Shown: positions 1 through 44,500, counted from the first letter of the stretch. The stretch is 64,000 bases of DNA from an uncultured Mesorhizobium sp. (GCA_964629765.1 CAZVTK010000002.1:32898-96897); one strand, 5' to 3'. A program made the numbers and translations. The notes: generated from the letters alone by a model not told the origin.

Positions 1-166
1 CGGCAGATCGTCCCCGGAACCCGTTTCAGCCAAAACTGACGAAGAGTGTTTTTCCATGCTCGCTTATTTCCGATAGGTAACAGTTTGATTCGAAAGGAAT
101 TTTCAAGGTCTATCCTGGCGCGTGCGCCGCCGTGCAGACAGCCGCATGCGATGTCAAAATTTCACA

Positions 167-204
167 TTGACATTCCTTTTTCGAGATAGTTAAGTACTTA
201 ACTA
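167..204 (+). promoter_or_regulatory. Putative sigma70 -35 (TTGACA 167-172) plus perfect 18-bp palindromic operator TAGTTAAGTACTTAACTA (187-204)
   Basis: Read directly. The AT-rich palindrome overlaps the expected -10 region just upstream of the first CDS. Confidence 0.7.
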
Positions 205-212
205 ATGTCGGA

Positions 213-2108
213 ATGCAAGGTTTCAATCATCCCATGACGCAACTGGAGCCGCACCTGAAATCCGTGAGCGATCGCCAGGGAGAGGCGGAGCTGGCGCCAC
301 CCTCCCGCGACGAAGTCGGTGCTTCCCGGCCGTCCCTGAGTTCAACTGAAGTCGCCCTGCTGCACAATCGTTTCGAAGGAATCATCCGAGCGATGATGAA
401 TACGTTACGACGTACGGCCCGCTCGTCAATCCTGAGCACCGCGCGGGATTTTTCCTGCGCCATTCTTACGGCCGACAGCCAGCTTCTTTCGGTGGCCGAA
501 TCGATCCCGATCCACGTCTTTCGCGGCGCCGACCTTCAGGCTGAATCGATGTGCCGGCTGCATCCCGACCTTCGCAAGGGAGATGCCTTCCTTCACAATT
601 CCCCGTACCACGGAAACTCCCATGCGGCCGACTGGTCGATCCTGGTGCCGGTTTTCGACAGCGACGGGGTGCATCGCTTTACGGTGCTCGCGAAGGGGCA
701 TCTCGCCGATGTCGGCAATTCGGTCCCGGCGACCCGGTTCCAGCGCGCGCGGGACGTCTACGAGGAAGGTCCCCTCCTGTTTCCCTGCGTCAAGGTTCAG
801 CAGGACTACCGGCACAATGACGACATCATCCGCATGTGCAAGCTGCGCATCCGGGTGCCGGAACTGTGGTATGGCGACTATCTCGCGATCCTCGGCGCGG
901 CGCGCATCGGCGAGCGCCTGCTGGCCGAGCTCATCGAGGACCGCGGTCCGGCGACGCTGCAATCCTATGTCGAGGAGTGGTTCGACTACAGCGAACGGCG
1001 GATGGTCAACGCGATCGCGAAAATGCCGGCGGGCTCGACCGTCGTCCGGGGCAAGTACGACCCCGTCGCGGGTTTTCCCGACGGCATTCCGCTGAATGTC
1101 GGCGTGAAGGTGGATCCTGCGGCCGGCCGCATCGAGGTCGATCTGCGCGACAACATCGACTGCCAGCCTTTCGGCCTGAACCTGAGCGAGGCGACGGCCG
1201 CGACGGCAGGGCTGATCGGCATCTTCAGCGGCCTTGGCGACGACGTCCCCACCAATGCCGGCAGCTTCCGCCGCGCCGAGGTGAAGCTGCGGGAAAACTG
1301 CATCGTCGGAATTCCGCGCCATCCCACGAGCTGCAACATGGCGACCACCCATATCGCCGAGCGCGTCGCGAAATTCGTGGCGATGGGACTGGCCGAGATC
1401 GCCGACGGCTTCGGCATGGCCGAGGTCGGCTGCACCTTGCCCGCCGCCTGGGCCAAGATCTCGGGCCGCGATCCCCGCCATGGCGACCGTCGCTTCTCGG
1501 ACGGGATCGTGCTGGGCACGACGCACGGCGCGGGCGCGCCGAAGGCCGATGGCTGGCTGACGCTGGCGGGGATCGGCGCCGCCGGCACGATGCTGCGCGA
1601 CAGCATCGAGCTCGACGAGCTGAAATACCCGATCCTCGTCCATCTGGAGCGCCTCATTCCCGACAGCGAAGGCCCCGGGCGCTTTCGCGGGGCGCCGGGG
1701 GTCCATACGGAGTTCGGCCCGGTCGACGGAACCACGATCGAGGTCATCGCGGGCAGCGACGGCACCGTCTTTCCGGCGCGCGGCGTGCGGGGAGGGGGCG
1801 CGGGAGCGGCGGCCCGCCAGTACAAGCGCGACTTGGACGGCGCGCTGTCGGAGGATCTGGGCGGAGAGTTCCGCATAATCGTGAACCCCGGCGAACGGAT
1901 CGTGTCGATGTGCTGCGGCGGCGGCGGGTACGGGCCTCCGTGCGAGCGCGATCAGGATCGCGTGGTGCACGATGTTCGCGAGGGATGGGTCACGCGCGAA
2001 CGCGCCCGCGACGTCTACCGCGTCGCGATCGCCGAGGATGGCGCGCTCGATCCGGTCGGGACGGCGCGCCTGCGTGATGCTGCGCCGGTTCTCGATACGG
2101 CGCCTTGA
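213..2108 (+). CDS. Hydantoinase B/oxoprolinase family protein
   Basis: Motifs RTARSS..ARDFSCAI, NSPYHGNSHAAD, GHLADVG, E-x-x-YP, DSEGPGRFRG, GGGGYGPP. The start could instead be ATG 234. Confidence 0.9.
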   Translation: MQGFNHPMTQLEPHLKSVSDRQGEAELAPPSRDEVGASRPSLSSTEVALLHNRFEGIIRAMMNTLRRTARSSILSTARDFSCAILTADSQLLSVAESIPIHVFRGADLQAESMCRLHPDLRKGDAFLHNSPYHGNSHAADWSILVPVFDSDGVHRFTVLAKGHLADVGNSVPATRFQRARDVYEEGPLLFPCVKVQQDYRHNDDIIRMCKLRIRVPELWYGDYLAILGAARIGERLLAELIEDRGPATLQSYVEEWFDYSERRMVNAIAKMPAGSTVVRGKYDPVAGFPDGIPLNVGVKVDPAAGRIEVDLRDNIDCQPFGLNLSEATAATAGLIGIFSGLGDDVPTNAGSFRRAEVKLRENCIVGIPRHPTSCNMATTHIAERVAKFVAMGLAEIADGFGMAEVGCTLPAAWAKISGRDPRHGDRRFSDGIVLGTTHGAGAPKADGWLTLAGIGAAGTMLRDSIELDELKYPILVHLERLIPDSEGPGRFRGAPGVHTEFGPVDGTTIEVIAGSDGTVFPARGVRGGGAGAAARQYKRDLDGALSEDLGGEFRIIVNPGERIVSMCCGGGGYGPPCERDQDRVVHDVREGWVTRERARDVYRVAIAEDGALDPVGTARLRDAAPVLDTAP

Positions 2109-2202
2109 CGGGGACGGCGGCGCCCGTCGGGCCCGCGTCTTGAAGCCCTGACCGGCAGGACGGCGCGATTCGCCGAAGGCCGGGATTCTATGGAGGACGT
2201 TT

Positions 2203-4293
2203 GTGAGTGCATTGCGGTTGCGCCTCGGCGTGGACATCGGCGGTACGTTCACCGATCTGGTCATCGACGGAATTCCGGGCGAAGGCCTGCGCCTGTTCAA
2301 GAGCTCGACGACGCCGAGCGATCCGGCATTGGGCCTGCTGGCGGTGATCGACGTCGCGGCGCGGCGGCTGGGCTACGAGCGCTCCGAATTCCTGGGCATG
2401 GCCGATCAGTTCGTCCACGGAACGACGCGCGCCACCAACGCCATCGTCACCGGCTCGACGGCCCGGACCGCCTTTCTGTGCACGGAGGGTCATCGCGACA
2501 CGCTCCTGTGGCGCGAAGGCGGCGGCCGGCGCTCGCCGATGGATTATACCCAGCCGTTTCCCGAGCCCTATGTTCCGCGCGCCCTCACCTTCGAGGTTCG
2601 CGAACGCATGGTGTCGGATGGCCGCGTGCTGACGCAACTGGACGAGGAAAAGCTTCGACAAACCCTCGTCGAGATCGGGAAGGCTTCGGTCGAGGCGATT
2701 GCCGTGTGCCTGTTGTGGTCGATCGCCAACCCGGCTCACGAGCTGCGGGTGGGGGAACTGATCAGGGAAATCCTTCCCGGCATTCCCTTCACGCTTTCCC
2801 ACCAGCTCAACCCGACGATCAGAGAGTATCGCCGCGCGTCGTCGACGGCCATCGACGCGTCGCTGAAGCCCCTGATGTCGCACTATTTCTCGCACATCGA
2901 GGCAAGCCTGCGCCGGGAAGGCTTCAAGGGCCGCCTGCTGGTGCTGACCTCCGCCGGCGGCGTCCTCGACGCGACCGACGTGGCCCAGAAGCCCATCCAC
3001 TCGGTGGGCTCCGGGCCGGCCGCGGCGCCGGTGGCGGGGCGTCATTTCGCCGCTCTCGACATGGGGGCCGACACTGCGGTGGTGACCGATGCGGGAGGCA
3101 CGACCTACGATGTCAGCCTCGTCCGTTCCGGCGAGATCCCGTGGACACGCGAGACGATGGTGGGGGATTTCCCCGGCAACATGCTCGGCTTCCCGTCGGT
3201 GGACGTGCGCTCGATCGGCGCGGGAGGCGGCTCGATCGCCTGGGTCGATTCCGGGGGCCTGCTGCGCGTCGGGCCGCAAAGCGCCGGCGCCGACCCGGGA
3301 CCGGCGGCCTATGGCCGCAACGGCGCCCTGCCCACCGTCACCGACGCGGCCGTGGTGCTCGGCTATATCGACCCGGACTATTTCCTCGGCGGCGACATGC
3401 CGCTGCGGGCGGACCTGGCAGCGGCGGCGATCGAGAAGGAGATAGCGGGGCCGCTGGGAATCAGCCTCAACGAGGCGGCGAGCGCGATCTTCGAGCTGGC
3501 CTGCGAACGCATGGTCAGCGCCATCGAGGAGATCACGCTCAACCAGGGCATCGACCCGTGCAGCGCGGCGATGATCGGCGGCGGCGGCGGGGCGGGGCTC
3601 TATTCCGCCTTCATCGCGCGGCGGCTGGGCGTGAGGCAGATCCTGATCCCCGAGACGTCCGCCGCGCTCAGCGCGGCCGGCGCTCTCATCTCCGACCTTC
3701 GCAGCGACGAGGCGTCCTTCCTGGTCACCTCCAGCGCGGATTTCAACTTCGCGGCGGTCAATGCGGTGCTCGAGGATCTGGAGCGTCGCTGCGAAGCGTT
3801 CATCGTCTCGGCCGGCGGGGCACGCGAAGCCGCCTCGATCCGCTTCGTCGTCGAGGCGCGCTATCCGCACCAGAACTGGGAGTTCGAGGTTCCGCTGACG
3901 GTGACGCGCTTCACGAGCGACGAGGACGTCGAAGCGGCCCGGCAGGACTTCCATGCCGTTCACGAGCGGCTGTTCGCGCATCGTGACGAACATTCGCCGG
4001 TCGAATTCGTCACGTGGCGGGCAAGCGTGCGGTGCCTGCTGCCCCATCCGCAGCCCCGGTCCGCGGGTGCCCGGAAGGAAGCGGGCGCAGCCGCCTCGAC
4101 GCGAATGGCCGTGTTCGGAAAGGAACCGATGGCCACCAGCGTATGGCGGCTCGACGACATGCTGCCGGGCCAGTCGCAGCATGGCCCCGCCATCATCGAG
4201 ACTCCGGCGACGACCATCATCGTGCCGCCGGAGGCGGTGGCGGTGCGCCTGAAGTCGGGATCCCTCGCCCTGGATCCCTCGGTTTCAAAGTGA
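2203..4293 (+). CDS. Hydantoinase A/oxoprolinase family protein (ATP-binding subunit)
   Basis: GVDIGGTFTD, HGTTRATNA, SGPAA, DAGGTTYDV, SIGAGGGSIA, GPQSAGADPGP, PTVTDA. Shine-Dalgarno (SD) GGAGG upstream. Confidence 0.93.
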   Translation: MSALRLRLGVDIGGTFTDLVIDGIPGEGLRLFKSSTTPSDPALGLLAVIDVAARRLGYERSEFLGMADQFVHGTTRATNAIVTGSTARTAFLCTEGHRDTLLWREGGGRRSPMDYTQPFPEPYVPRALTFEVRERMVSDGRVLTQLDEEKLRQTLVEIGKASVEAIAVCLLWSIANPAHELRVGELIREILPGIPFTLSHQLNPTIREYRRASSTAIDASLKPLMSHYFSHIEASLRREGFKGRLLVLTSAGGVLDATDVAQKPIHSVGSGPAAAPVAGRHFAALDMGADTAVVTDAGGTTYDVSLVRSGEIPWTRETMVGDFPGNMLGFPSVDVRSIGAGGGSIAWVDSGGLLRVGPQSAGADPGPAAYGRNGALPTVTDAAVVLGYIDPDYFLGGDMPLRADLAAAAIEKEIAGPLGISLNEAASAIFELACERMVSAIEEITLNQGIDPCSAAMIGGGGGAGLYSAFIARRLGVRQILIPETSAALSAAGALISDLRSDEASFLVTSSADFNFAAVNAVLEDLERRCEAFIVSAGGAREAASIRFVVEARYPHQNWEFEVPLTVTRFTSDEDVEAARQDFHAVHERLFAHRDEHSPVEFVTWRASVRCLLPHPQPRSAGARKEAGAAASTRMAVFGKEPMATSVWRLDDMLPGQSQHGPAIIETPATTIIVPPEAVAVRLKSGSLALDPSVSK

Positions 4294-4329
4294 ATCAGCC
4301 AGTAAATCAACCGCATGGGGAGATGCATG

Positions 4330-5871
4330 ATGAGTGATAATGGCAGACGTTCAAATGGGATTACACGGCGTCGGGTACTGCAAGCGGGGGCGGTTGGCCT
4401 GTTGGCGTCAACCGCAATTCGCCCCGTCTGGGCAGCCGGCGAAAGCAAGGAATTGCGGATCGCCTATGGCTCCATAGGCACCGACTGGAATCCGCATAAC
4501 GCGTCGAACACCGATTCCGAGGTGATCAACGCCACATTCTCGCAAAACCTGGTCACCACCAATGACAAGGGCGAGATCATACCCGTCGTCGCGGAGTCGG
4601 TCACGCAGGTTTCAGACACCCAGGTTCACGTCAAGCTGCGTAACGGCGTCACCTTCAGTGACGGAAAGCCCGTTACAGTGGAAGACGTGAAATATACGCT
4701 GGAAGATTATCTGCGGCCGACGGGGATGTTCACCAACCCGGTCTATTTCTGGTTGAAGGACGTCGCCATCGTCGATTCCACCACGGTCGCGGTCAATGCG
4801 AAACTCCCGATCCGGACCGCGATTCCCCTGATGGCGTTCCAGTCCCGCGTCATCCCGAACGGCGCGGAAGGGCCGGCATTCAGCAGCAGCCCCATTGGAA
4901 CCGGGGCCTACGTCTTCGACAGCTATCAGCCGAACGACCGGGTCGTCGTCCGCAGGAACGACAACTACTGGGGAGAGCCGAAGGCGACCTTCGACCAGAT
5001 CACGTTCCGCCAGATTTCCGACCCGTCGACCCGGGTGGCGGCGCTTCTGGCGGGCGAGGTGGATTTCGCCCAGAATATTCCGGTCCACGAGATTTCCCGG
5101 CTTCAGGAGGCCGGATTTACGGTGTCGTCCCGGGCCGGCCGGCGCACCATGCTGCTTTGGACCAACCGCGCCAAGGAAGGCCCCTGGCGCGATCCCAGGG
5201 CGGCGCAGGCCCTGGCCTATTCCATCGACACGACCGCGCTCAACGATGCGCTGTATGCCGGGATGGGATCGCCGAGCAGGGCACCGATAGCGGATTCCGT
5301 TCCCTTTGCCGCAACCGATCTTCCTCAATACCCGCACGACCCGGCCAAGGCGCGGGAACTGCTCGAAGCGGCGGGCGTCGGGTCCGGGAAGGTGAAGCTG
5401 CTGGCGCCGCAGGGCCGGTTCCTCAACGACAAGGCTCTCGCCGAGGCGACTGCGGGCCAGTTGGAAGAAGCGGGCCTGTCCGTCGAGCTTCAGCTCTACG
5501 ACTTCGCAACCTTCCGCAACATCGGCTCGGATCCGTCGAAGCACGACGCCGATCTCATCATGGTCGGCTGGAACGCGTTCTATGCCGACGCCGACGCCGG
5601 CTTGCAGATCTTCCGCCACAAGCATCCGTTCAACTACGGCGGCTACCGGAACGACGAGATCGAGGAGCTGCTCGGCAAAGGCACCCTGCCGGCGTCGACA
5701 AGCGAGACGACGGAACGGTACAAGCGCATTCAGGAACTGCTGTGGACCGAGGATCCGCCCGGCGCCTTCCTGCTTTCGCTTCCCATCGTGCACGCCTTCC
5801 GCAAGGAATTGCAGGGCGTGGAAGTATACCCCGACGAGCGGATCGACTGGACCAAGGTCTCGCTCTCCTAG
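4330..5871 (+). CDS. ABC transporter substrate-binding protein, family 5 (DppA/OppA-like), Tat signal
   Basis: TRRRVL Tat-like signal; LRNGVTFSDGKP..EDVKY and PIGTGAY motifs. Start at 4327 or 4330. Confidence 0.9.
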   Translation: MSDNGRRSNGITRRRVLQAGAVGLLASTAIRPVWAAGESKELRIAYGSIGTDWNPHNASNTDSEVINATFSQNLVTTNDKGEIIPVVAESVTQVSDTQVHVKLRNGVTFSDGKPVTVEDVKYTLEDYLRPTGMFTNPVYFWLKDVAIVDSTTVAVNAKLPIRTAIPLMAFQSRVIPNGAEGPAFSSSPIGTGAYVFDSYQPNDRVVVRRNDNYWGEPKATFDQITFRQISDPSTRVAALLAGEVDFAQNIPVHEISRLQEAGFTVSSRAGRRTMLLWTNRAKEGPWRDPRAAQALAYSIDTTALNDALYAGMGSPSRAPIADSVPFAATDLPQYPHDPAKARELLEAAGVGSGKVKLLAPQGRFLNDKALAEATAGQLEEAGLSVELQLYDFATFRNIGSDPSKHDADLIMVGWNAFYADADAGLQIFRHKHPFNYGGYRNDEIEELLGKGTLPASTSETTERYKRIQELLWTEDPPGAFLLSLPIVHAFRKELQGVEVYPDERIDWTKVSLS

Positions 5872-5909
5872 GGCATTTCCGGCGTCGTAGAAATGCGACG
5901 GGACTGACG

Positions 5910-5945
5910 GCCGGATCGTTTCATCGCGCGATGAAACGATCCGGC
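5910..5945. repeat. Perfect 36-bp palindrome GCCGGATCGTTTCATCGCGCGATGAAACGATCCGGC between SBP and permease genes
   Basis: Self-reverse-complementary over 5910-5945. The position is typical of an mRNA-stabilising hairpin. Confidence 0.85.
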
Positions 5946-5967
5946 TCCGTAACCAAGAATATACGCG

Positions 5968-6900
5968 ATGATCTTGCAGACACTGAAAAGATCGCTCCGC
6001 GCCATCCTGGTGATGCTTGGCGCCTGTCTGCTGGTATTCGTCGTGCTTCGGCTTGCGCCGGGAGATCCGGCGCAAATCCTGCTTGGCGACACCGCCGCCC
6101 CCGAAGCCATCGCCATGCTGCGGGAACAGCTCGGCCTGAACCAGCCGATCTGGGTCCAGGCGATCTATTTCTTCGGCAACCTGTTGCAGGGCGACGCGGG
6201 AGACTCGGTCGTCTACGGCCGGCCGGCCATGCAGCTCGCCCTGGAAGCCTTTCCCGCCACCTTGTTCCTCGTGGTCGCGTCATTCGTGATCGCGACGATC
6301 GTGGCCATTCCCATCGGCACCGCGTCCGCTGTCTGGCGCGGGTCGCTGGTCGACAAGGCGGGGCTCGGCGTCATCCTTCTGTTTCAGTCCCTCCCCGGCT
6401 TCTGGGTCGGGATTCTGCTGATCTTCTTCTTCGCCGTGAACCTTCGCCTCCTGCCGACGTCGGGCGGCGGCAGCATCGCGCATGTGGTGCTGCCGGCGCT
6501 GACGCTCGCGACCGTCCAGATCCCGATGCTCGCCCGCGCCGTCCGGGCGAGCATGCTCGAGGTCTTGGACGAAGACTACATACGGACCGCCCGGGCCAAG
6601 GGCGCCTCCGAATGGCGTGTCGTGATGCTGCACGGTTTCCGCAACGCTCTCATTCCCGTCATCACGCTGATGGCGGTGAATTTCGGGACATTGCTTTCGG
6701 GGACCGTGGTGACCGAGGCGATCTTCGCCTGGCCCGGCATAGGCACGCTGGCGATGACCGGCATCCTTCAGCGGGACTATACGCTCGTTCAGGCGATCGT
6801 GATCTTCTCGGCCGCCATCGTGGCGCTGGCGAATTTCACCGCCGACTCGCTGTACCAGATACTCGACCCGCGGCTGCGCGGGCAGGGAGCCGGCGAATGA
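5968..6900 (+). CDS. ABC transporter permease (DppB-like)
   Basis: LAPGDPA, GLNQP and the EAA loop DYIRTARAKG; hydrophobic. Confidence 0.93.
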   Translation: MILQTLKRSLRAILVMLGACLLVFVVLRLAPGDPAQILLGDTAAPEAIAMLREQLGLNQPIWVQAIYFFGNLLQGDAGDSVVYGRPAMQLALEAFPATLFLVVASFVIATIVAIPIGTASAVWRGSLVDKAGLGVILLFQSLPGFWVGILLIFFFAVNLRLLPTSGGGSIAHVVLPALTLATVQIPMLARAVRASMLEVLDEDYIRTARAKGASEWRVVMLHGFRNALIPVITLMAVNFGTLLSGTVVTEAIFAWPGIGTLAMTGILQRDYTLVQAIVIFSAAIVALANFTADSLYQILDPRLRGQGAGE

Positions 6901-7778
6901 GCGACGCGTCCCCGGCATACGACGCACCCGAGGGCGACGCCTTGCAGCGCCGCCGCTCGATCTTGCGCGTAGTGCTCGATCATCCGGTGGCGCTGTTCGG
7001 CTTCGGCGTCCTTCTGGCGCTCGTCCTGATGGCGATCTTCGCCCCGTACCTGGCGCCGTTCAGCCCGACGCAGCAGAGGCTCACCTCCCGGCTGCTGCCG
7101 CCGCTGTCGGGAAGCCATTGGCTCGGAACCGATCAGTTCGGCCGCGACGTCCTTTCGCGCTGGCTCTACGGCGTGCGCGTTCCGCTGGTGGTGGGCGTGG
7201 TGTCGGCCCTGCTCGGCGGGGTGCTCGGAACGATCGTCGGTCTCACGGCGGGATACTTCCGGGGAAAGATCGACACCGTCATCTCGATCGTCATCGATAT
7301 CCAGCTATCCGTGCCGTTCGTCCTGCTGGCTCTCGCCGTCGTCGCGCTTTTCGGTCCGGGAACGGTAAAGATCATCATCGTCTTCGCGCTCACCAACTGG
7401 GCGATGGTTGCCCGGGTCGCGCGCGCGTCGGCCTTGAAATACCGTCGGGCCCCGTTCGTGGAGGCGGCGATCCTCGCCGGGGCGACGGACCGATGGATCC
7501 TGCTGCGGCACGTTTTCATCAACGCGATACCGCCGGTCATGGTGGTAGTGTCGGTGCTGGCCGCGCAGAACGCCATCTACGAATCGGCCTTCGCATTCTT
7601 CGGCCTCGGCGTGCCCCCTCCCACCCCGAGCTGGGGCAACATGCTGGCGGACGGCAAGGACTACTTCTACAGCGCCTGGTGGCTCGGCCTCTTTCCGGGC
7701 ATCGGCATCCTGCTCGTCGCCGTGGGCATGAACCTGATCGGAGACTTTCTCCGCGACGCGATCGACCCCAGGCTGTGA
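6897..7778 (+). CDS. ABC transporter permease (DppC-like)
   Basis: HWLGTDQFGRDV, FVEAAILAG, PPTPSWGNML. ATGA overlap with the upstream gene; C-terminal part of track ORF 5157..7778. Confidence 0.92.
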   Translation: MSDASPAYDAPEGDALQRRRSILRVVLDHPVALFGFGVLLALVLMAIFAPYLAPFSPTQQRLTSRLLPPLSGSHWLGTDQFGRDVLSRWLYGVRVPLVVGVVSALLGGVLGTIVGLTAGYFRGKIDTVISIVIDIQLSVPFVLLALAVVALFGPGTVKIIIVFALTNWAMVARVARASALKYRRAPFVEAAILAGATDRWILLRHVFINAIPPVMVVVSVLAAQNAIYESAFAFFGLGVPPPTPSWGNMLADGKDYFYSAWWLGLFPGIGILLVAVGMNLIGDFLRDAIDPRL

Positions 7779-7798
7779 GCAGGTTGGAGAAAGCCGCC

Positions 7799-9691
<1,893 letters not shown>

Positions 9692-9739
9692 GAATGGCGT
9701 CCGGTATATCTACAAAACATCAAGGCGGAGAGATTGATC

Positions 9740-10114
9740 ATGTCCGAAAGCAAGAAATCGAAAATCCGTGTTCTTTTTTGTATCGCGGTATCGCAGAATT
9801 TCTTCGATCTCCCCGAATCGGAGATTCCATCCGTATTGAAAGTCTATTCGAAGGTTTTCTCCGATATAGCCAATCTTCCCGGCCTGAGCGTCGTCGGCAC
9901 GTTCGATGACGACAGGGTCATGGTCGGGGCTTCGTCGGGATGGCCCTGGACGTCCTACATCCTGGCCGATGTGGATGCGCTCGATACGGCGATCGCCGCA
10001 TGCAACCTGTTCCGCACCACGCCGGTGGCGGGAGGGAGGATGTGGAAATACGGCCGCATCGAAGCGCGCATCGGCCGCGAGCTCGATCTCGCCGCCGTGT
10101 CGCAGCCGGCATAG
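9740..10114 (+). CDS. iacB: IacB-like protein (homolog of the indole-3-acetate catabolism protein IacB)
   Basis: RVLFC..QNFFD, DDD..MVG....PWTSY.LADV, ACNLFRTTPV and W.Y..IEAR.GREL match IacB sequences as I recall them. SD GGAG. Confidence 0.75.
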   Translation: MSESKKSKIRVLFCIAVSQNFFDLPESEIPSVLKVYSKVFSDIANLPGLSVVGTFDDDRVMVGASSGWPWTSYILADVDALDTAIAACNLFRTTPVAGGRMWKYGRIEARIGRELDLAAVSQPA

Positions 10115-10177
10115 AAACCTCGCGGCGGCCCTGCCCGGAACAATGATCCCTATCCTTTCGAGCAACACGGTCGGCAG

Positions 10178-11368
10178 ATGACCGCTACCGGCTTTCGCGC
10201 TTCGCCCGCGCAGGGCTACGACGATGTCGTGATCGCCGCCCCGTTCACGCTTCCCTATCGGCGTTTCTCGACCCGGGGTGCGCACTGGTTCCTCGGCCGG
10301 GTTCTCCACGGCCTCCTCGAATGCAGCGGCCTTTCCAAGGACCGTATCGACGGCCTGTGCGTTTCGAGCTTCACGCTGGCGCCCGACACGGCGGTCGGCC
10401 TGACCCAGCATCTCGACCTGACGCTGCGCTGGCTCGATCACATCCCGATGGGCGGCGCGAGCGCCATCGTCGCGCTCAGGCGCGCGGCGCGCGCCGTGCA
10501 GTGCGGCGACGCCGCGATCGTCGCCTGCATCGCCGGCGACACCAACCAGGTGGATACCTTCCGCCAGAGCACGGCCCGCTTCAGCCAGTTCGCGCAGGAT
10601 GCCGTATACCCCTATGGCGCCGGCGGCCCGAATGTCAGCTTCGCCTTCCTTACCGCCTATTACATGCGCATCTACGGCGCGCGCCCGGAGGATTTCGGCA
10701 AGCTGTGCGTGGCCCAGCGCAACAATGCGCTGCATTTTCCTTTCGCGCTGTTCAGGAAGCCGCTCACCCTCGACGAGTATCTCGCCTCGCGCATGATCGC
10801 CGACCCGATCCGGCTCTATGACTGCGTGATGCCCTGCGCGGGTGGCGAAGGCTTCCTCGTGATGCGCCGCCAGGAGGCCGAGCGCATGGGGCTGCCCCAT
10901 GCGCATATTCTCGGCACCATCGAGCGGCACAACGCCTTTCCCGAAGACCCGATCCAGTTTCGCGGCGGATGGGCGCTCGACGCCGGAACGCTCTACGAGC
11001 AGGCCGCGATCGGCCCAGAGGATATCGACGTTCTCCAGACCTATGACGACTACCCCGTCGTCACCATGCTGCAATTCGAGGATCTCGGCTTCTGCAGCAA
11101 GGGCGGGGGGCCGGATTTCGTGCGCCGCCATTCCTTCGAGGCGGGAGGCAGCTTTCCGTTCAACACGTCCGGCGGGCAGCTTTCGGTCGGGCAGGCGGGA
11201 GGCGCCGCCGGCTTTCTCGGTCTGGTCGAAGGCTTGCGGCAGGTCACGGGCACCGGGCTCGGCGCGCGCGTCGCCGATGTCCGCCATGCCATGGTGAGCG
11301 GCTTCGGCATGATCAACTACGACCGCGGTTTGTGCAGCGGCGCGGCAATTCTCGGTGCGCAGCGATGA
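10178..11368 (+). CDS. Thiolase-family protein (SCP2/Ltp2-like, no N-terminal acylated Cys)
   Basis: AQRNNA..P.A, TYDDY, EDLGFC, FNTSGGQLS. PMGGASA lies where thiolases have C-x-S. Confidence 0.85.
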   Translation: MTATGFRASPAQGYDDVVIAAPFTLPYRRFSTRGAHWFLGRVLHGLLECSGLSKDRIDGLCVSSFTLAPDTAVGLTQHLDLTLRWLDHIPMGGASAIVALRRAARAVQCGDAAIVACIAGDTNQVDTFRQSTARFSQFAQDAVYPYGAGGPNVSFAFLTAYYMRIYGARPEDFGKLCVAQRNNALHFPFALFRKPLTLDEYLASRMIADPIRLYDCVMPCAGGEGFLVMRRQEAERMGLPHAHILGTIERHNAFPEDPIQFRGGWALDAGTLYEQAAIGPEDIDVLQTYDDYPVVTMLQFEDLGFCSKGGGPDFVRRHSFEAGGSFPFNTSGGQLSVGQAGGAAGFLGLVEGLRQVTGTGLGARVADVRHAMVSGFGMINYDRGLCSGAAILGAQR

Positions 11369-12618
11369 CGAAGCCGAAGATCAGGAACCCCATCCTGCGC
11401 ACGCGGCAGCCTACCTTGCCGCCCGTCACGCGCAGCCGGATCGCCCTCGGCATGACGGCGGGCGCCGCCCTCGGCCGTTTCGAATTGCAGGTCTGCGAAG
11501 CGTGCGGTGCGGTGCAATATCCCGCCCGCGAGGTCTGCCGGCGCTGCCTGTCCGACCAGCTCGTCTGGCGCCCGCAGGACGGCAGGGGCGAACTGATCAG
11601 CGAGACGACGTCCCGCGCCTCGCAGGAGCTTTATTTCCGCGAGCGGCTTCCGTGGCGGCTCGGCATGGTGCGGCTCGCCGCGGGGCCGACCGTGGTGGCG
11701 CATGTCCATGCCGATTGCCCGGCGGCGCCCTGCGCGGTGCGCGTCACGGCCGTGCTCGACAGGGCCGGCCAGGCCACGCTCGTGGCCGTGCCCCCAAAGG
11801 GAAGGCCCGATCTCAACGAGGATCCGCGCCTGAAGGACATGACATGCGACCCGGCGGGCCGGAAGATCCTGGTGACGGACGGCAAGAGCCCGGCGGGCCA
11901 GGCCGTGGTGCGCGCGCTCGCCGCCGCGGGCGCCAGCCTGATCTGGGCCGGCTGCGCGGAACCGTGGAAGCGGCCGCCGGGCTTCGCCGCCCTTTGCGAG
12001 CTGCCGCAGGTGGATATCGTGCCGCTCGACGTGACGGACACCCGCTCCGTCGCCGAGCTCGCGGGCCGCATCGGCGGCAAGGTCGATATCGTCGTCAACA
12101 CCGCCGACCATCACCGCACCTTCGGCATCGGCGCCCGGCAGGGCATCGCGACGGCGCAGGCGGAAATGGAGGTGAACTATTTCGGCATGCTGCGGCTGGC
12201 GCAATCCTTCGGTCCCGCGCTGCGCGCGCGGGCGGCGGACGGCGAGGCCAATGCGGTGGCCTGGGTCAATCTCTTCAGCGTGTTCGCGCTCTCCAATTTT
12301 CCGCCGCACGGCACCTATTCGGCCTCGCAGGCCGCCGCGCTTTCGCTTTCGCAATGCCTGCGCGCGGAGATGCAGCCCGCCGGCATCCGCGTCGTCAACG
12401 TCTTCAGCGGCCCGGTGGACGACGAATGGAACCAGCTCGTGCTGCCGCCCAAGCTCGGGCCGGAGGCGCTGGCCGATGCCGTCGTCTCGGCGCTGAAGGG
12501 CGCGGTGGAGGATGTGTTCCACGGCCCCGTCGCGCAGGACTGGCTGGAGCGGTGGCGCAGCGACCCGAAGACCCTCGAACGCGAGCTGACGGCGGCCGCG
12601 TCGTCGGGCGGCGCCTGA
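11365..12618 (+). CDS. DUF35 Zn-ribbon/OB-fold domain fused to an atypical SDR domain
   Basis: CEAC..CRRC zinc ribbon and OB-fold, followed by a Rossmann fold with TDGKSPAG and YSASQ. ATGA overlap with the thiolase gene. Confidence 0.85.
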   Translation: MTKPKIRNPILRTRQPTLPPVTRSRIALGMTAGAALGRFELQVCEACGAVQYPAREVCRRCLSDQLVWRPQDGRGELISETTSRASQELYFRERLPWRLGMVRLAAGPTVVAHVHADCPAAPCAVRVTAVLDRAGQATLVAVPPKGRPDLNEDPRLKDMTCDPAGRKILVTDGKSPAGQAVVRALAAAGASLIWAGCAEPWKRPPGFAALCELPQVDIVPLDVTDTRSVAELAGRIGGKVDIVVNTADHHRTFGIGARQGIATAQAEMEVNYFGMLRLAQSFGPALRARAADGEANAVAWVNLFSVFALSNFPPHGTYSASQAAALSLSQCLRAEMQPAGIRVVNVFSGPVDDEWNQLVLPPKLGPEALADAVVSALKGAVEDVFHGPVAQDWLERWRSDPKTLERELTAAASSGGA

Positions 12619-12637
12619 ACGAGCAAACGGAGCCATC

Positions 12638-13423
12638 ATGACGGACGCGTTGACCGGTTTCGCCACAGCCCTCGCGACGGGAAAGATCCGCATCGTCGAC
12701 CTGACGCAGACCCTGACGCCCGGCTTTCCCCGGATCACCCTGCCGCCCGAGATGGAGCAGAGCCGCCCGTTCCGCATCGAGGAGATCTCCCGGTACGACG
12801 AGCGCGGCCCCGCTTGGTACTGGAACAATTTCTCCTGCGGCGAGCATACGGGCACGCATTTCGACGCGCCGATCCACTGGATCACCGGCCGCGACCTGCC
12901 GAACAACGCCACCGACACGATCCCGCCCGAGCATTTCATCGCGCCGGCCTGCGTCGTGGATTGCTCCGCCGAGAGCGCCCGCGATCCCGATCATCTCCTG
13001 ACGGCCGACGCCCTGCTGGCCTGGGAGGGCGTGCACGGGCGGATACCGGCGGGAAGCTGGGTGCTGATGCGCACCGACTGGTCGAAGCGCACCGATCCCG
13101 CCGCCTACCAGAACTATGACGAGACGGGTCAGCACACGCCGGGGCCGGATGTCGGCGCGGTGCGCTTTCTGGTCGAAAAGCGCGACGTCCTCGGCTTCGG
13201 CACCGAAACCATCGGCACCGATGCTGGACAGGCCGCGCATTTCCAGCCGCCCTATCCCTGTCACAGCTTCATGCATGGAGCGGGGCGCTACGGCCTGCAA
13301 TGTCTCGCCAATCTCGACAAGCTGCCGCCCACGGGCGCGCTGATCTTCGCGGCGCCTCTGAAGATCCAGCGCGGCAGCGGCAGTCCGCTTCGTGTCCTCG
13401 CAATCCTTTCCGCCGGAGCCTGA
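12638..13423 (+). CDS. Cyclase/kynurenine-formamidase family amidohydrolase, isatin hydrolase-like
   Basis: HTGTHFDAPIHW metal motif; GTDAGQ and APLKI..GSGSP.R closely resemble isatin hydrolases as recalled. Confidence 0.88.
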   Translation: MTDALTGFATALATGKIRIVDLTQTLTPGFPRITLPPEMEQSRPFRIEEISRYDERGPAWYWNNFSCGEHTGTHFDAPIHWITGRDLPNNATDTIPPEHFIAPACVVDCSAESARDPDHLLTADALLAWEGVHGRIPAGSWVLMRTDWSKRTDPAAYQNYDETGQHTPGPDVGAVRFLVEKRDVLGFGTETIGTDAGQAAHFQPPYPCHSFMHGAGRYGLQCLANLDKLPPTGALIFAAPLKIQRGSGSPLRVLAILSAGA

Positions 13424-13425
13424 CC

Positions 13426-15024
13426 ATGTCGCCCGCCGCGCCCTTCGCCCCCGCCGACCGCACCTTGCCGGCCATGCTGGAACGGCAGGCCGCGCGCTAC
13501 GGCGACCGCCGGCTCGTGACGACGGAAGACGGCGCATGGACCTATGCCGAGGCGCGCGAGGCGGCCGCCCGCGCGGCGGCGGCGCTTGCGCAGGCCGGCA
13601 TCGCCAGGGGCGACCGCGTCGCGATCCTGTGCGGCAACCGGCTGGCATTTCTGGAAATCGTGCTCGGCTGCGCCTGGCTGGGCGCCATCCTGGTGCCGAT
13701 CAACACCGCCTCGCAGGGGCCGCAGGTCCAGTACATTCTCGGCAATTGCGGGGCGAAGCTGCTCGCCTGCGAGACGGATCTCGTCTCCGCGCTGGACACG
13801 GCCGATCTTTCCGCGCTGCCGCTGGAAACGATCTGGTCCATCGGCGGGGAGCCGCCGGCAGATGGCGTCCAGGGCCGGCCTTGCCGGGCCTATGCGCCGG
13901 GCGGCGACCGGCTCGCGCCCGCCGCCATCCGGCCCGGCGACACCATGGCCATTCTCTACACCTCCGGCACGACCGGGCCCTCCAAGGGCGTCTGCTGCCC
14001 CCACGCGCAATATTACTGGTGGGGCAGCCTGTCGGCGGCCGCGCTCGGGGTGCGCGAGGGCGACGTGCTCCTGACGACCTTGCCGCTGTTCCACATCAAC
14101 GCGCTCAACACGTTCGCGCAGGCGCTTCTGAACGGCGCGTCCTACGTGCTCGAAAGGCGTTTCTCGGCCTCGGGCTTCTGGCCGGCGCTGGCGAGGCACG
14201 AGGCGACCGTGACCTACCTGCTCGGCGCGATGGTCCCGATCCTGCTCGCGCGGGAGCCCTCGCCCGCCGAACGCGAGCACAAAGTGCGCATCGCGCTCGG
14301 CCCCGGCGTGCCGGGCCATCTGCACGAGGTGTTTCGCGAGCGCACGGGCGTCGCCCTGCTCGAGGCCTATGGCTCCACCGAAACGAATTTCGTCATCGGC
14401 CGGGGGATCGGGGACCAGAAGCCCGACACGATGGGACGCGTGCGCGACGGCTTTTTCGCGCGCGTGGTCGATGCGCAGGACAATCCGGTGCCCGATGGCG
14501 AGCCGGGCGAGCTGGTGCTGCGCGCGGACGAGCCTTTCGCCTTCGCCACCGGCTATTTCGGCATGGACGACAAGACTGTGGAGGCGTGGCGCAATCTCTG
14601 GTTCCACACCGGCGACCGCGTGATCCGCGACGGCGAAGGCTATTTCAGATTCGTCGACCGCCTGAAGGACGCCATCCGGCGGCGCGGCGAGAACATCTCG
14701 TCCTACGAGGTCGAGCAGGTGCTGCTGAGCCATCCGCAGATTGCGGCCGCGGCGGTCTATCCGGTGCGATCGGAGCTCGCCGAGGACGAGGTGATGGCCG
14801 CGATCGTGCGTCGTGCCGACGCGGATTTCGACGAGGTCGCGCTGATGCGGTTCTGCGAGACGCGCATGCCGTATTTCGCGGTGCCGCGCTACGTGACCTT
14901 CGCGTCCGACCTGCCGCGCACCGAGAACGGCAAGGTGCAGAAATACAAGCTGCGCGAAGAGGGCGTGACGGCCGCGACCTGGGACCGCGAAGCGCATGGC
15001 TATCAGATCAGGCGACGCAAATGA
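13426..15024 (+). CDS. ATP-dependent acyl-CoA ligase (CaiC-like)
   Basis: YTSGTTGPSKG, YGSTE, WFHTGD, RRRGENISSYEVE and GKVQK adenylation motifs. Confidence 0.93.
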   Translation: MSPAAPFAPADRTLPAMLERQAARYGDRRLVTTEDGAWTYAEAREAAARAAAALAQAGIARGDRVAILCGNRLAFLEIVLGCAWLGAILVPINTASQGPQVQYILGNCGAKLLACETDLVSALDTADLSALPLETIWSIGGEPPADGVQGRPCRAYAPGGDRLAPAAIRPGDTMAILYTSGTTGPSKGVCCPHAQYYWWGSLSAAALGVREGDVLLTTLPLFHINALNTFAQALLNGASYVLERRFSASGFWPALARHEATVTYLLGAMVPILLAREPSPAEREHKVRIALGPGVPGHLHEVFRERTGVALLEAYGSTETNFVIGRGIGDQKPDTMGRVRDGFFARVVDAQDNPVPDGEPGELVLRADEPFAFATGYFGMDDKTVEAWRNLWFHTGDRVIRDGEGYFRFVDRLKDAIRRRGENISSYEVEQVLLSHPQIAAAAVYPVRSELAEDEVMAAIVRRADADFDEVALMRFCETRMPYFAVPRYVTFASDLPRTENGKVQKYKLREEGVTAATWDREAHGYQIRRRK

Positions 15025-15034
15025 GGAGGCGATC

Positions 15035-15772
15035 ATGACCATGCAGACGGCATTCGTAACCGGCGCGGCGCAGGGGCTGGGCGCGGCGATCGCCAAGGCC
15101 CTCGCCGATTCCGGCCGCAACGTGGTGCTGGCCGACGTCGACGCATCCGTCGCCGAGACCGCCAGGGCCATCGACCCCCACGGCCGGCGCGCCGTCGCGC
15201 AGATGCTCGACGTGCGCGACGAAGAGGCGTTCCAGTCGGCGTTCGACGGCGCGGTGGCGCGCTTCGGCGCCGTCGACATCATGGTCAACAACGCCGCACG
15301 CACGGCGATGCGCCCGGTATGGGACATCACCGCGCCGGAATGGGACGACGTGCTGTCGGTCAATCTGCGCGGCACGTTCTTCGGCTGCCGCATCGCCGGC
15401 CGGCACATGCGCGAGCGCAAGGCCGGGCGCATCATCAACCTTTCCTCGATCGCCGGCCAGTTGGCCAGCCCCGCGACGGGCGTGCACTACGCGGCCTCGA
15501 AGGCGGGCATCCTCATCCTGACGAAGGTGTTCGCGCAGGAGCTCGCTCCCTTCTCCGTGACGGTCAACGCCGTCGCGCCGTCCGCGATTTCGAGCCCGGC
15601 GGTCGAATCCGCGCCGCCCGAGAAGATCGCCGCGGTTCTCGCGACCATCCCCGTGGGCCGTCTCGGGCGGCCGGACGAGCTGAGCTCCGCCGTCCTCTAT
15701 CTCGCGTCCCAGGATAGCGGCTACATCACGGGCGCGACGCTCGACATCAATGGCGGCAGGCTGATGCGCTGA
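15035..15772 (+). CDS. Classical SDR oxidoreductase (FabG-like)
   Basis: TGAAQGLG, NNA, YAASK. SD GAGGAGG. Confidence 0.92.
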   Translation: MTMQTAFVTGAAQGLGAAIAKALADSGRNVVLADVDASVAETARAIDPHGRRAVAQMLDVRDEEAFQSAFDGAVARFGAVDIMVNNAARTAMRPVWDITAPEWDDVLSVNLRGTFFGCRIAGRHMRERKAGRIINLSSIAGQLASPATGVHYAASKAGILILTKVFAQELAPFSVTVNAVAPSAISSPAVESAPPEKIAAVLATIPVGRLGRPDELSSAVLYLASQDSGYITGATLDINGGRLMR

Positions 15773-15795
15773 GCGCGCGGTGCGGGCAGGCGCCG

Positions 15796-16227
15796 TCAAT
15801 CCCGCTCATAGGTGAGCTTCTTGAGCATGCCGATGAATTCGTCGTGCTTCGATCGCGGAAGGGAGCTGAGGAGCTGCGCCTGCACGCGCTGAACGGCGGG
15901 TTCCGCCTGTTCCAGCAGGGCCATCCCTTCGGCCGAAAGCGCGAGGATCTTGATCCGGCGGTCCTCCTCGCTCGGCGTGCGCTGGACGAGCCCCTTCTTC
16001 TCCAGCCGGTAGATGACGTCGCCGATGGTCGAGCGGTCGAACGCGATCAGCTCCGAAAGCCGCGTCGCATCGATGCCGGGGTTGTATCGCAGCGTGCGCA
16101 TCGCAGCATATTGCACGGAGGTCATGTCGAGGGCTCCGCACTCGGCGGCGAAGAGAGCGGAGTGCACCTGCCAGAGCCGACGCACCAGATGCCCGGGCAT
16201 CGAATACAGATCGTCGGACTTACCCAT
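15796..16227 (-). CDS. MarR family transcriptional regulator (PcaV/MobR-like)
   Basis: PGHLVRRL..QY...FDRSTIG..RLEKKGLV.R..DRR winged helix. Start ATG 16227 (GTG 16251 possible). Confidence 0.93.
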   Translation of the reverse strand: MGKSDDLYSMPGHLVRRLWQVHSALFAAECGALDMTSVQYAAMRTLRYNPGIDATRLSELIAFDRSTIGDVIYRLEKKGLVQRTPSEEDRRIKILALSAEGMALLEQAEPAVQRVQAQLLSSLPRSKHDEFIGMLKKLTYERD

Positions 16228-16266
16228 CTGACAGTTCGGCTTTCCCTGCACGACATCGAGCTATCT

Positions 16267-16280
16267 ATCAGCATACGGAA
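16267..16280. promoter_or_regulatory. Putative MarR operator ATCAGCATACGGAA (autoregulatory site)
   Basis: Matches the recurring ATCAGTATACTGAT-like palindrome and lies directly upstream of marR. Confidence 0.65.
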
Positions 16281-16321
16281 TATCGACAAGGCTGCACGGT
16301 AAAAAACGCCGCAGGCAGCGC

Positions 16322-29847: not shown

Positions 29848-30606
29848 CTATTCGATGCCGGTGACTTCGCTGCGCAGAGATTCCCAGATCTGGTAGACGA
29901 CGCGCCCGTATTCGGGGTCCTTGCGCAGCTCCAGCACGTCGCGCGGCCGGGCGAACGGCACCTCGATGACAGACTTGATGCGGGCGGGCCGCGCCGTCAT
30001 CACGATCACCGTGTCGCTGAGCGTCACCGCCTCGTCGACGCTGTGGGTGACGAAGACGACCGTCTTGCGGGACTCGTCCCACACCTTCAGCAGCTCGTGC
30101 TGGAGAATGGTGCGGTTCTGCTCGTCGAGGGCCGAGAACGGCTCGTCCATGAGGAAGACGTCGGGGTCGTTGGCGAAGGCGCGGGCGATCGACACGCGCT
30201 GCTTCATCCCGCCCGACAGCTCGTGCGGGTACGCCTTGGCGAACTTCGACAGGCCCGTCTTCTCCAGATAGCGGCCGACGCGCTCGGTGAGCACCCCGTC
30301 GGGCACGCCGCGGATCTTCAGGCCGTAGGCCGCATTGTCCCACACCGTCATCCAGGGGAAGACGGAATCGCCCTGGAACACCATGGAGTTGGAATAGGGC
30401 GTTGCGGGCGTGCCCATACGCACCTCGCCCTCCGACGCGTCCTCCAGCCCGGCGAGGATGCGCAGGAAGGTGGTCTTGCCGCACCCGCTTGGGCCGACGA
30501 TGGACACGAACTTGCCCTCGGGCACGTCGAGCGAGACGTTGTCCACCGCACTGATCAGCCCGGTGTTGCCGGCGAATTCCTTCGTGAGGCCGCTTACCTT
30601 GATCAC
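29848..30606 (-). CDS. ABC transporter ATP-binding protein (TauB/SsuB family)
   Basis: GPSGCGKTT, LSGGMKQR, LMDEPFSALD. GTG start with SD GGAGG. Confidence 0.93.
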   Translation of the reverse strand: MIKVSGLTKEFAGNTGLISAVDNVSLDVPEGKFVSIVGPSGCGKTTFLRILAGLEDASEGEVRMGTPATPYSNSMVFQGDSVFPWMTVWDNAAYGLKIRGVPDGVLTERVGRYLEKTGLSKFAKAYPHELSGGMKQRVSIARAFANDPDVFLMDEPFSALDEQNRTILQHELLKVWDESRKTVVFVTHSVDEAVTLSDTVIVMTARPARIKSVIEVPFARPRDVLELRKDPEYGRVVYQIWESLRSEVTGIE

Positions 30607-33070: not shown

Positions 33071-33095
33071 CCGTCGTTTTCCTGTTGGCGCGCCG

Positions 33096-33296
33096 TCACT
33101 CGTCCTCGACGATCTCGATCGCCAGGACCGGGCAGGCGCGCGCCGCCGACCGCGCTGCGGCGTGCCGCGCGGCGGCGGGCTGGTCATCGAGGAGGACGAC
33201 GATCCCGTCGTCCTCGTTCTGGTCGAACACGTCGGGGGCGGCCAGAACGCAATGGCCCGCACCGATGCATTTGTCCTGGTGGATCCTGATCTTCAT
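33096..33296 (-). CDS. 3Fe-4S ferredoxin (P450 partner)
   Basis: CIGAGHC...APDVF...CP motif; immediately upstream of the P450. Confidence 0.92.
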   Translation of the reverse strand: MKIRIHQDKCIGAGHCVLAAPDVFDQNEDDGIVVLLDDQPAAARHAAARSAARACPVLAIEIVEDE

Positions 33297-44366: not shown

Positions 44367-44399
44367 GGCAATCCCTCCCATCAAGACAGAATGCATATA

Positions 44400-44413
44400 T
44401 TCCGTATACGTTA
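44400..44413. promoter_or_regulatory. Putative MarR operator variant TTCCGTATACGTTA
   Basis: Shares TGCATAT..TTCCGTATAC with the 22.6-kb site; upstream of the TPP gene. Confidence 0.5.
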
Positions 44414-44500
44414 TTTCGTCGCGACACGAACCCTTCGTGGGGACGCATCGTCAGGAATTGCGAGCGCCGGCGCGGGGTGTTCCTCGGCGCCACCGACGAT

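Follow-up and report, generated by a model that had tools for sequence, protein, structure and literature searches.

A mosaic gene array with iacB and an iad-type cassette behind a hydantoinase-family pair and a rare importer in an uncultured Mesorhizobium sp.

The aerobic auxin-degradation loci closest to the one described here belong to the iad and iac/iad-hybrid classes of Conway 2022 (PMC9613470). Genetics and metabolomics in Variovorax place IadJ before dioxindole-3-acetate (DOAA), attribute removal of the DOAA side chain to IadF, IadG and IadH, and place IadI after that removal, with anthranilate as the product (PMC12633357). The published labels are acyl-CoA synthetase for IadF, 'ketothiolase' for IadG, 'alcohol dehydrogenase' for IadH and 'kynurenine formamidase' for IadI, the last acting after the C8 product (PMC12633357). 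We analysed a 64,000-nt stretch of DNA from an uncultured Mesorhizobium sp. (GCA_964629765.1, CAZVTK010000002.1:32898-96897), referred to as the window; its source genome is a 338-contig draft that is 98.8% complete. The left end of the window carries 12 co-oriented genes on the plus strand (positions 213-15772), downstream of a divergent MarR gene and an 18-bp palindrome, and the spacing between these genes ranges from overlaps to gaps of 97 bp.

The reading that we prefer, with a probability of roughly 0.6, is that the array is a mosaic operon in which iacB and an iad cassette, fed with oxindole-3-acetate (oxIAA) or DOAA, stand behind a HyuBA pair and an importer under a MarR-controlled promoter. 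Positions 213-9691 (Unit A) would encode a caprolactamase-like lactamase pair and a rare importer of peptide or opine type, and positions 9740-15772 (Unit B) would encode IacB and IadG-H-I-F-J. Unit A would thus stand where other cassettes carry IadR, the IadK2 importer and a front end oxidising indole-3-acetate (IAA), namely IacA/G, Rieske IadCDE or a molybdenum hydroxylase. The locus therefore looks like a known cassette in a new configuration, and the oxindole theme that a preliminary description had proposed for it appears to be right, on better grounds than those given at the time.

The iacB-iad cassette and its relatives

Open reading frames (ORFs) were called with the guidance of GC content at third codon positions (GC3), and the proteins were scanned with Pfam and NCBIfam. 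The genes of Unit B are as follows.

9740-10114, plus strand: IacB, 124 aa; 55-64% identity to proteins named IacB, with the family's invariant residues present.
10178-11368, plus strand: IadG-type thiolase-fold protein (Thiolase_C_1); 72-90% identical to the cassette gene in loci L182, L001 and L006-L010.
11332-12618, plus strand: IadH-type DUF35 protein (zinc ribbon and OB fold, zf-ChsH2/OB_ChsH2_C) fused to a degenerate short-chain dehydrogenase/reductase (SDR); PF12172, PF01796, PF00106.
12638-13423, plus strand: IadI, predicted isatin hydrolase (Cyclase, PF04199); 5nmp at E 2.1e-111, with an HTGTHFDAPIH metal motif.
13426-15024, plus strand: IadF-type AMP-forming acyl-CoA synthetase (AMP-binding, AMP-binding_C); 68-78% identical to cassette ligases at the same position.
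14996-15772, plus strand: IadJ-type SDR (IacE-like); 72-76% identical to cassette SDRs, 45% to IacE of a canonical cluster, and the best IacE match in the genome.

The order thiolase, DUF35-SDR, cyclase, ligase and SDR is the same in L006, L008, L009, L010 and L182, at 72-85% identity, and the five-gene cassette was also found in 11 further loci at 57-68% identity or more. What follows the cassette varies. In L006 (Mesorhizobium sp. L-8-10, AP023263.1, 2.574-2.595 Mb) and L010 it is IacB, IacG and IacA; in L008 it is a three-subunit molybdenum hydroxylase of the xanthine dehydrogenase (XDH) type; and in L007 it is IOR-like IadA/B, a reductase and Rieske subunits, the alpha subunit of which matches V. 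paradoxus IadD (9o71, E 4.9e-192). The solute-binding protein (SBP) of L006 matches PDB entry 7ylt (E 5e-157), a structure that we assume to be that of IadK2 from the Variovorax work on iad (PMC10374108). The G-H-I core is also present in four relatives of the same family (G012, G013, G021 and G033) and in six class-level genomes, with front ends of the Rieske or molybdenum-hydroxylase kind. By gene order and identity, the right half of the array is the iadG-H-I-F-J cassette known from auxin loci of the aerobic iad and iac/iad-hybrid classes. We also observed that a molybdenum hydroxylase of the XDH family adjoins the iad cassette in three loci (L008, 16442-20069; L185, 8025-10313; L187, 12546-13769); beside IacA and Rieske IadCDE it may form a third kind of front end for IAA under aerobic conditions, echoing the anaerobic route.

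The locus shares with the iad loci of Variovorax paradoxus CL14 and Bradyrhizobium (PMC9613470, PMC12633357) the orthologues of IadG, H, I, F and J in one block and an isatin hydrolase step, and its cassette gene order is that of loci which also carry IadD and IadK2 orthologues. Unlike them, it lacks IadCDE, IadA/B, IadR and the importer with the IAA-binding IadK2 (Peripla_BP_6) and a branched-chain-type ABC system, and it has iacB, a family-5 ABC importer and the HyuBA pair. The closest named cassette is that of the hybrid locus L006, with 74-81% identity, the same five-gene order and an IacB as well. However, L006 has IacA and IacG beside IacB, two MarR genes and an importer of IadK2 type, none of which is found in the window, and its iacB lies downstream of the cassette whereas that of the window lies upstream. 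Because in the thiolase tree the cassette of the window groups with Mesorhizobium-type cassettes and not with those of its own family, it appears to have been acquired horizontally relative to the iad loci of that family. The possibility that it is a decaying remnant was rejected, all ORFs being intact and dN/dS being about 0.10-0.19.

The small ORF at 9740-10114 has no Pfam or NCBIfam match. Many of its 400 homologues are named IacB, and the best 120 share 52-86% identity with it. The ORF is 64% identical to the iacB that a canonical Pseudoduganella iac cluster carries with iacA on one side and iacE on the other, so that its earlier identification as IacB proves sound. No function has been assigned to IacB in the literature (PMC7225977). 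The AlphaFold model (pLDDT 87.5) has a ferredoxin-like beta-alpha-beta-beta-alpha-beta fold, and it has only weak matches in the PDB, to YgiN/ABM monooxygenases, dimeric alpha+beta-barrel (DABB) proteins and olivetolic acid cyclase. The resemblance to ABM and DABB proteins is at the level of the fold only (TM 0.4-0.5). The invariant residues of the family are a DDD triad, Cys14, Cys88, Arg10, Arg92, Arg110 and Arg113. A relationship to muconolactone isomerase was considered and dropped (hhalign probability 0.3%). A role as a cofactor-free isomerase or oxygenase acting on an enolisable oxindole C3 is conceivable. Elsewhere, in L005 (3011-6114), IacB stands between a 657-aa Abhydrolase_10 protein, itself behind an NMT1-type ABC importer, and a convergent IadJ-type SDR on the opposite strand; this SDR is 65% identical to that of the window, and there is no thiolase/isatin-hydrolase cassette within 10 kb. 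It seems that IacB and SDRs of the IadJ/IacE type recur as a pair.

The preliminary description had counted three independent indole-linked families in the region. They are not independent, since IacB, the isatin hydrolase and the thiolase/DUF35-SDR (with the ligase and the SDR) are parts of one known cassette. Its suggestion that the locus deals with compounds of oxindole type does hold, given that the cyclase is closely related to isatin hydrolases of known structure and that the IacB is genuine.

Proposed chemistry and entry substrate

The cyclase IadI has full-length matches to crystallised isatin hydrolases (5nmp, E 2.1e-111, residues 5-257; 5nna/5nnb, E 1e-107; 4j0n, E 1e-88), in agreement with its first description as an isatin-hydrolase-like enzyme. 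It keeps the metal-binding HxGTHxDxPxH motif (EHTGTHFDAPIHW), and it scores 22.6 bits on the kynurenine formamidase model, for which the cut-off is 223. We regard it as a predicted isatin hydrolase.

IadG and IadH were compared over the cassettes of the window (10178-12618), L006-L010, L095-L099 and L185-L190, the loss of cysteine in IadG being read in the protein of the window. IadG has no match to Thiolase_N, and its best PDB matches are 9myr and the steroid aldolase Ltp2 (6ok1, E 1.8e-37). Its nucleophile loop PMGGASA aligns to YGGGAAC of Ltp2 and has no Cys at the nucleophile position. A YD motif, a candidate counterpart of the catalytic Tyr pair of Ltp2, also aligns (TYDDY versus LYDHF), with residue numbering unchecked against the structure. 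In the SDR part of IadH, TDGKSPAG and YSASQ stand where TGxxxGxG and YxxxK are expected; both motifs vary and are degenerate throughout the 15 aligned cassettes, and the CxxC...CxxC ribbon of DUF35 is kept.

The C3 of DOAA is a tertiary carbinol, which cannot become a beta-keto thioester, and because of this tertiary alcohol a beta-keto thiolysis of DOAA would be impossible. Ltp2-ChsH2 acts on the C17 carbinol of steroids, a tertiary beta-hydroxyacyl-CoA on a five-membered ring, and gives a ring ketone and a short acyl-CoA. The window proteins resemble that system in having a thiolase fold without the nucleophilic Cys and a DUF35 partner with zinc ribbon and OB fold. On the other hand, the similarity is distant, and the DUF35 part in the window is fused to a degenerate SDR and not to a hydratase. 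IadG is thus a probable CoA-ester retro-aldolase.

We infer the following steps. IadJ, probably with the help of IacB, would convert oxIAA or its hydrated 2,3-diol to DOAA, and IadF would convert DOAA to DOAA-CoA. IadG together with the DUF35 part of IadH would then cleave DOAA-CoA by a retro-aldol reaction to acetyl-CoA and isatin, and IadI would open isatin to isatinate, which would go on to anthranilate; dioxindole would be a redox side pool of isatin. This scheme fits the classical Bradyrhizobium intermediates. It suggests that the 'ketothiolase' and 'alcohol dehydrogenase' assignments could be replaced by a DUF35-dependent retro-aldolase acting on DOAA-CoA.

Regarding the products, the preliminary description had proposed a hydroxy- or aminobenzoate and gentisate. 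The aminobenzoate part stands, anthranilate being the expected end product of the published pathway. The gentisate part found no support: a cupin dioxygenase, a GST-type isomerase and an FAD hydroxylase for gentisate do occur in the window but have no tie to the array, and no Rieske alpha subunit of an AntA-type anthranilate dioxygenase was found in the genome. We also note a thiamine diphosphate (ThDP) enzyme of the benzoylformate-decarboxylase/acetolactate-synthase type at 42690-44450 on the minus strand, which could decarboxylate isatinate (2-aminobenzoylformate).

The front end of the described pathways appears to be missing, which in iad loci is the Rieske oxygenase IadD/E that, with its reductase IadC, makes the first attack on IAA. 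IacA, IacC/D, IacH, IacI, IadC, IadD, IadR and IadK2 had no match in tblastn searches of the whole draft genome (thresholds for IadC, IadD and IacC/D were E 1e-8 and 1e-5), and a flavin reductase resembling IacG occurs only on an unrelated contig. The window has no iadA or iadB; IOR subunits resembling IadA and IadB (70% and 53%) lie elsewhere, at 10295-14019 of contig C24, beside a second isatin-hydrolase paralogue. In that region (C24:7156-14019) the paralogue (53%) is flanked by two FAD oxidoreductases, followed by the IadA/IadB-like subunits, and the locus could serve a separate handling of isatin or isatinate (arylglyoxylate).

IacA is reported to yield oxIAA (PMC7225977), and the molybdenum hydroxylase presumably yields it too. 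The IadJ of the window is 72-76% identical to those of cassettes with IacA or molybdenum-hydroxylase front ends, and entry at the level of oxIAA fits because the IadJ type matches front ends that produce oxIAA. Since IacB has been kept and the genome also lacks IacA, IadC/D, IadR and IadK2, the locus most likely starts from a pre-oxidised oxindole-3-acetate (oxIAA or DOAA, free or as a peptide-like conjugate) and not from IAA.

The hydantoinase-family pair, the importer and the operator

The features upstream of iacB are as follows.

1-57, minus strand: 5' end of a MarR/HTH_27-family regulator of 182 aa; the start codon is at 57 and the gene leaves the left edge of the window (contig C2 of the source genome, about 32406-32954).
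161-204, plus strand: promoter-like site at 161-190 with TTGACA at 168-173, and a perfect 18-bp palindrome, TAGTTAAGTACTTAACTA, at 187-204, 14 bp after TTGACA.
213-2108, plus strand: HyuB, small (B) subunit of an ATP-dependent lactamase of the hydantoinase/oxoprolinase family (PF02538, E 7.5e-114).
2203-4293, plus strand: HyuA, ATP-binding (A) subunit (PF05378, PF01968, PF19278).
4315-5871, plus strand: SBP_bac_5, a family-5 (Dpp/Gsi/opine-type) periplasmic solute-binding protein (PF00496, E 4e-79).
5910-5945, no strand: perfect 36-bp palindrome in the spacer between the SBP and permease genes, as read from the sequence.
5968-7778, plus strand: ABC permeases, DppB-like (PermB, 5968-6900) and DppC-like (PermC, 6897-7778) (BPD_transp_1, OppC_N).
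About 7790-9691, plus strand: fused double ABC ATPase of DppD/F or GsiA type, with two ABC_tran and two oligo_HPY domains; the start codon is approximate.

Of the described relatives of HyuBA, the caprolactamase CapAB of Pseudomonas jessenii (6yra) is the nearest: it likewise has two subunits, a B-then-A gene order and the ATP motifs, and it is the best structural and NCBIfam match. The PDB ranking for HyuA runs from caprolactamase 6yra (E 2.6e-121) through N-methylhydantoinase 7hk5 to acetophenone and acetone carboxylases. The three ATP-binding motifs of the family as defined in PMC8453981 are present as DIGGTFTD, DAGGT and GADPGP. Nevertheless, both subunits score far below the cut-off of 1000 bits for the CapAB equivalogs (NF050156/NF050157), with 543 bits for HyuA on CapA and 246 bits for HyuB, whose best NCBIfam model is caprolactamase beta. 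IaaC/IaaE of the anaerobic iaa pathway of Aromatoleum/Azoarcus belong to the same enzyme family and have a proposed role in opening an oxindole lactam. Their pathway, however, is an anaerobic CoA/mutase pathway with no other gene in common with the locus in the window. The lactam opening by IaaC/E, which the preliminary description had treated as established, is proposed and not demonstrated, and CapA and IaaC are 37% identical (PMC8453981).

The genome has 11 HyuA paralogues at E<=1e-60 and several relatives have 5-9 copies; the hydantoinase/oxoprolinase family is strongly expanded in this lineage. The nearest HyuBA homologues (52-58% identical) are in one congener, in one member of the family and on one Cupriavidus and one Rhizobium plasmid. 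Those of the congener and of both plasmids lie near GntR regulators, SDRs and BKACE genes, accompanied by a gamma-carbonic anhydrase gene on the Cupriavidus plasmid and by a CoA transferase gene on the Rhizobium plasmid. The neighbours in the family member encode a second copy of HyuB, an ABC ATPase and a protein of the chaperonin family. No indole genes were found near these closest homologues, and none of the 17 other iad cassettes that were examined has a HyuAB pair. The earlier view of the pair as indole-linked thus comes down to adjacency alone. A ketone carboxylase was also considered, because a plasmid homologue adjoins the gamma-carbonic anhydrase gene. That assignment was not adopted, as there is no gamma subunit nearby, lactamases score higher and caprolactamase itself requires bicarbonate (PMC8453981). 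HyuBA is the only real newcomer beside the known cassette. We tentatively suppose that it hydrolyses a lactam in the compound taken up; a substrate that has nothing to do with the cassette is equally possible.

The best PDB match of the SBP is E. coli YliB/GsiB (1uqw, E 9e-49), and AgaA is a weak match. The protein is very rare. No homologue above 38% was found in 40 relatives; a search of 5.8e9 proteins, in which the best 8000 word-sharing candidates were scored, gave the protein itself and one match at 34%; pattern scans of genome and metagenome contigs gave none above 34%; and on plasmids only GsiB was found, at about 29%. The exception is a metagenomic C-terminal fragment in L191 that is 72% identical. 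The permeases are 86% (PermB) and 89% (PermC) identical to those of L191/L001, and the fused ATPase is 81% identical to that of L001. The orthologous spacer of L191 measures only 16 bp, so that the 36-bp palindrome appears to be an insertion or a lineage-specific element. Units of HyuAB with a family-5 ABC importer recur, in G019 (HyuA-HyuB-SBP5-PermB-PermC) and on contig C24 of the source genome.

The spacer between the MarR start and hyuB is 155 bp. The MarR ORF (L181:18406-18954, minus strand) matches Pfam MarR, MarR_2 and HTH_27, and its best PDB matches are weak, generic MarRs. The palindrome at 187-204 is a candidate operator for it. This MarR was rejected as an IadR orthologue (BLASTP E 2.2 against Mesorhizobium IadR). 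A second MarR at 15796-16251 on the minus strand was rejected as regulator of the array; it is PcaV/HosA-like, convergent and part of a minus-strand operon. A consensus scan of positions 1-16400, which is weak evidence in a high-GC genome, gave the site at 161-190 as the sole promoter-like site on the plus strand and no terminators in the intergenic gaps. Two statements of the preliminary description agree with these data: all the genes that it named are co-oriented on the plus strand behind one palindrome on the MarR side, and no separate promoter was found before the thiolase gene. It had ended the unit at 13423. The co-oriented unit runs on through the AMP-ligase and SDR genes, both of them members of the conserved cassette, and should therefore be taken to end at 15772.

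Linkage of the two halves and rival explanations

One metagenomic lineage (L191, L001 and L002) has the same gene order, SBP-PermB-PermC-ATPase-IacB-IadG. Its identities to the window across the junction are 72% for the SBP C-terminus, 86% for PermB, 89% for PermC, 81% for the ATPase, 78% for IacB and 84% for IadG. On both sides dN/dS is 0.10-0.18 and dS is 0.7-1.1; the importer-iacB-iadG junction is under purifying selection in this lineage. No importer or regulator belongs to the cassette of the window itself, and it has no recognisable promoter of its own. Co-conservation of the two halves therefore has to be answered in parts: the importer-iacB-iadG junction is conserved in one other lineage, and the hyuBA half is absent from all 17 other cassettes that were examined.

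Several points weigh against a mosaic operon entered at oxIAA or DOAA. The contigs of the metagenomic lineage end inside the SBP gene (its last 51 residues), short of any position that hyuBA could occupy. The closest cassette, L182 (thiolase 90%), has a canonical branched-chain ABC ATPase upstream, and in the thiolase tree it nests between two loci of Dpp type with moderate support (88/84). Because of this nesting, the Dpp-type arrangement appears to be young or reshuffled. L182 groups with the window and excludes L001, although L001 shares the Dpp-type junction; thiolase dS is 0.55 between the window and L182 and 0.88 between the window and L001. This placement points to replacement of the cassette by recombination or to repeated rearrangement. 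As for the entry substrate, a front-end gene could fall in a gap of the 338-contig draft, or the first step could be carried out in trans by an unrecognised oxygenase, such as the P450 system at 30.6-33.3 kb or one of the XDH-type enzymes encoded elsewhere. The former consists of a P450 and a ferredoxin-reductase-like partner (30603-33292, minus strand) in the same catabolic island as the ThDP enzyme. Finally, the published annotation has IadG as ketothiolase and IadH as alcohol dehydrogenase, and it is dioxindole (C8H7NO2), not isatin, that accumulates (PMC12633357).

The role of HyuBA is where the alternatives differ most. The pair could be an aerobic counterpart of IaaC/E that opens an unactivated 2-oxindole lactam (oxIAA, dioxindole or a related N-heterocycle) of the same imported compound that the cassette degrades, the rationale being that isatin hydrolase cannot hydrolyse such a lactam. 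HyuBA and the cassette do share one co-oriented array with a single promoter and operator, the selected junction recurs in a second lineage, and the cassette has lost its usual importer and so plausibly depends on Unit A. HyuA itself has the ATP motifs and is nearer to lactamase 6yra than to the carboxylases, with no gamma subunit nearby and a B-A order as in capB-capA. However, the pair is found in 0/17 other cassettes, it is one among many paralogues in the genome, and its nearest homologues have nothing indole-related beside them. Moreover, opening the lactam of oxIAA would bypass the cassette, which needs the oxindole ring intact up to isatin, and the IaaC/E role is itself only a proposal. 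We consider this explanation unlikely. The opposite explanation is that Unit A is a self-contained system for uptake and ring opening of an unrelated peptide-like lactam (of 5-oxoproline, opine or hydantoin type), behind which the cassette landed by recombination and is co-transcribed or read through. The recurrence of HyuAB with family-5 ABC genes, the nearness of the SBP to the glutathione binder GsiB, the Mesorhizobium-type grouping of a horizontally acquired cassette and a MarR unlike IadR would all agree with it. The aga operon of Ti plasmids offers a parallel, with a family-5 ABC importer (AgaA) and the hydantoinase-like AgaF/G, proposed to delactamise agropinic acid. Against it, the junction has lasted through a divergence of dS 0.7-1.1 while both of its sides stayed under constraint, the cassette lacks its own importer, regulator and recognisable promoter, and iacB was relocated exactly to the junction. 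This explanation is doubtful as it stands, but it deserves to be taken seriously.

A further alternative leaves HyuBA aside and supposes a complete IAA pathway, in which an unrecognised oxygenase elsewhere in the genome or the window hands oxIAA or DOAA to the cassette. The front ends of the cassette are indeed interchangeable (IacA/G, Rieske IadCDE, XDH-type molybdenum hydroxylase), the source genome has XDH-type enzymes that are 28-34% identical (large subunit) to that of L008, and the window has the P450 with its reductase. But no candidate oxygenase adjoins the cassette or closely resembles a known front end, and there is neither an IAA importer of IadK2 type nor an IadR; we find this quite improbable. 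We therefore keep to the mosaic operon fed with oxIAA or DOAA. Within it, a part for HyuBA in the indole or oxindole theme is improbable, a lactam unit unrelated to the cassette is a minority possibility that ranks somewhat higher, and the rest of our expectation lies with HyuBA acting on a precursor or conjugate of what the importer brings in.

A more speculative and rather unlikely extension is that the array serves aerobic scavenging of plant auxin-inactivation products (oxIAA, DOAA and amino-acid conjugates), with the importer, a caprolactamase-like lactamase acting on a lactam of oxindole type or of the conjugate, and the iad cassette working via isatin. If true, aerobic indole catabolism would gain its first enzyme of the hydantoinase family, and bacteria a first pathway specific for oxIAA. 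Apart from HyuBA, a Cys-less IadG, a degenerate SDR in IadH and an IadI that would be a true isatin hydrolase lead to a testable mechanism from DOAA to isatin, the retro-aldol cleavage of DOAA-CoA, which differs from the annotation-based reading with a ketothiolase and an alcohol dehydrogenase. Bacterial auxin degradation by iac and iad shapes root development, and its engineering is now being attempted. The lower iad cassette appears to be a portable unit that can be combined with IacA/G, Rieske IadCDE, a molybdenum hydroxylase or, as in the window, none of these. This suggests that some bacteria may live on oxidised auxin catabolites and not on IAA, which would alter the reading of metagenomic iad-like genes as 'auxin degraders'.

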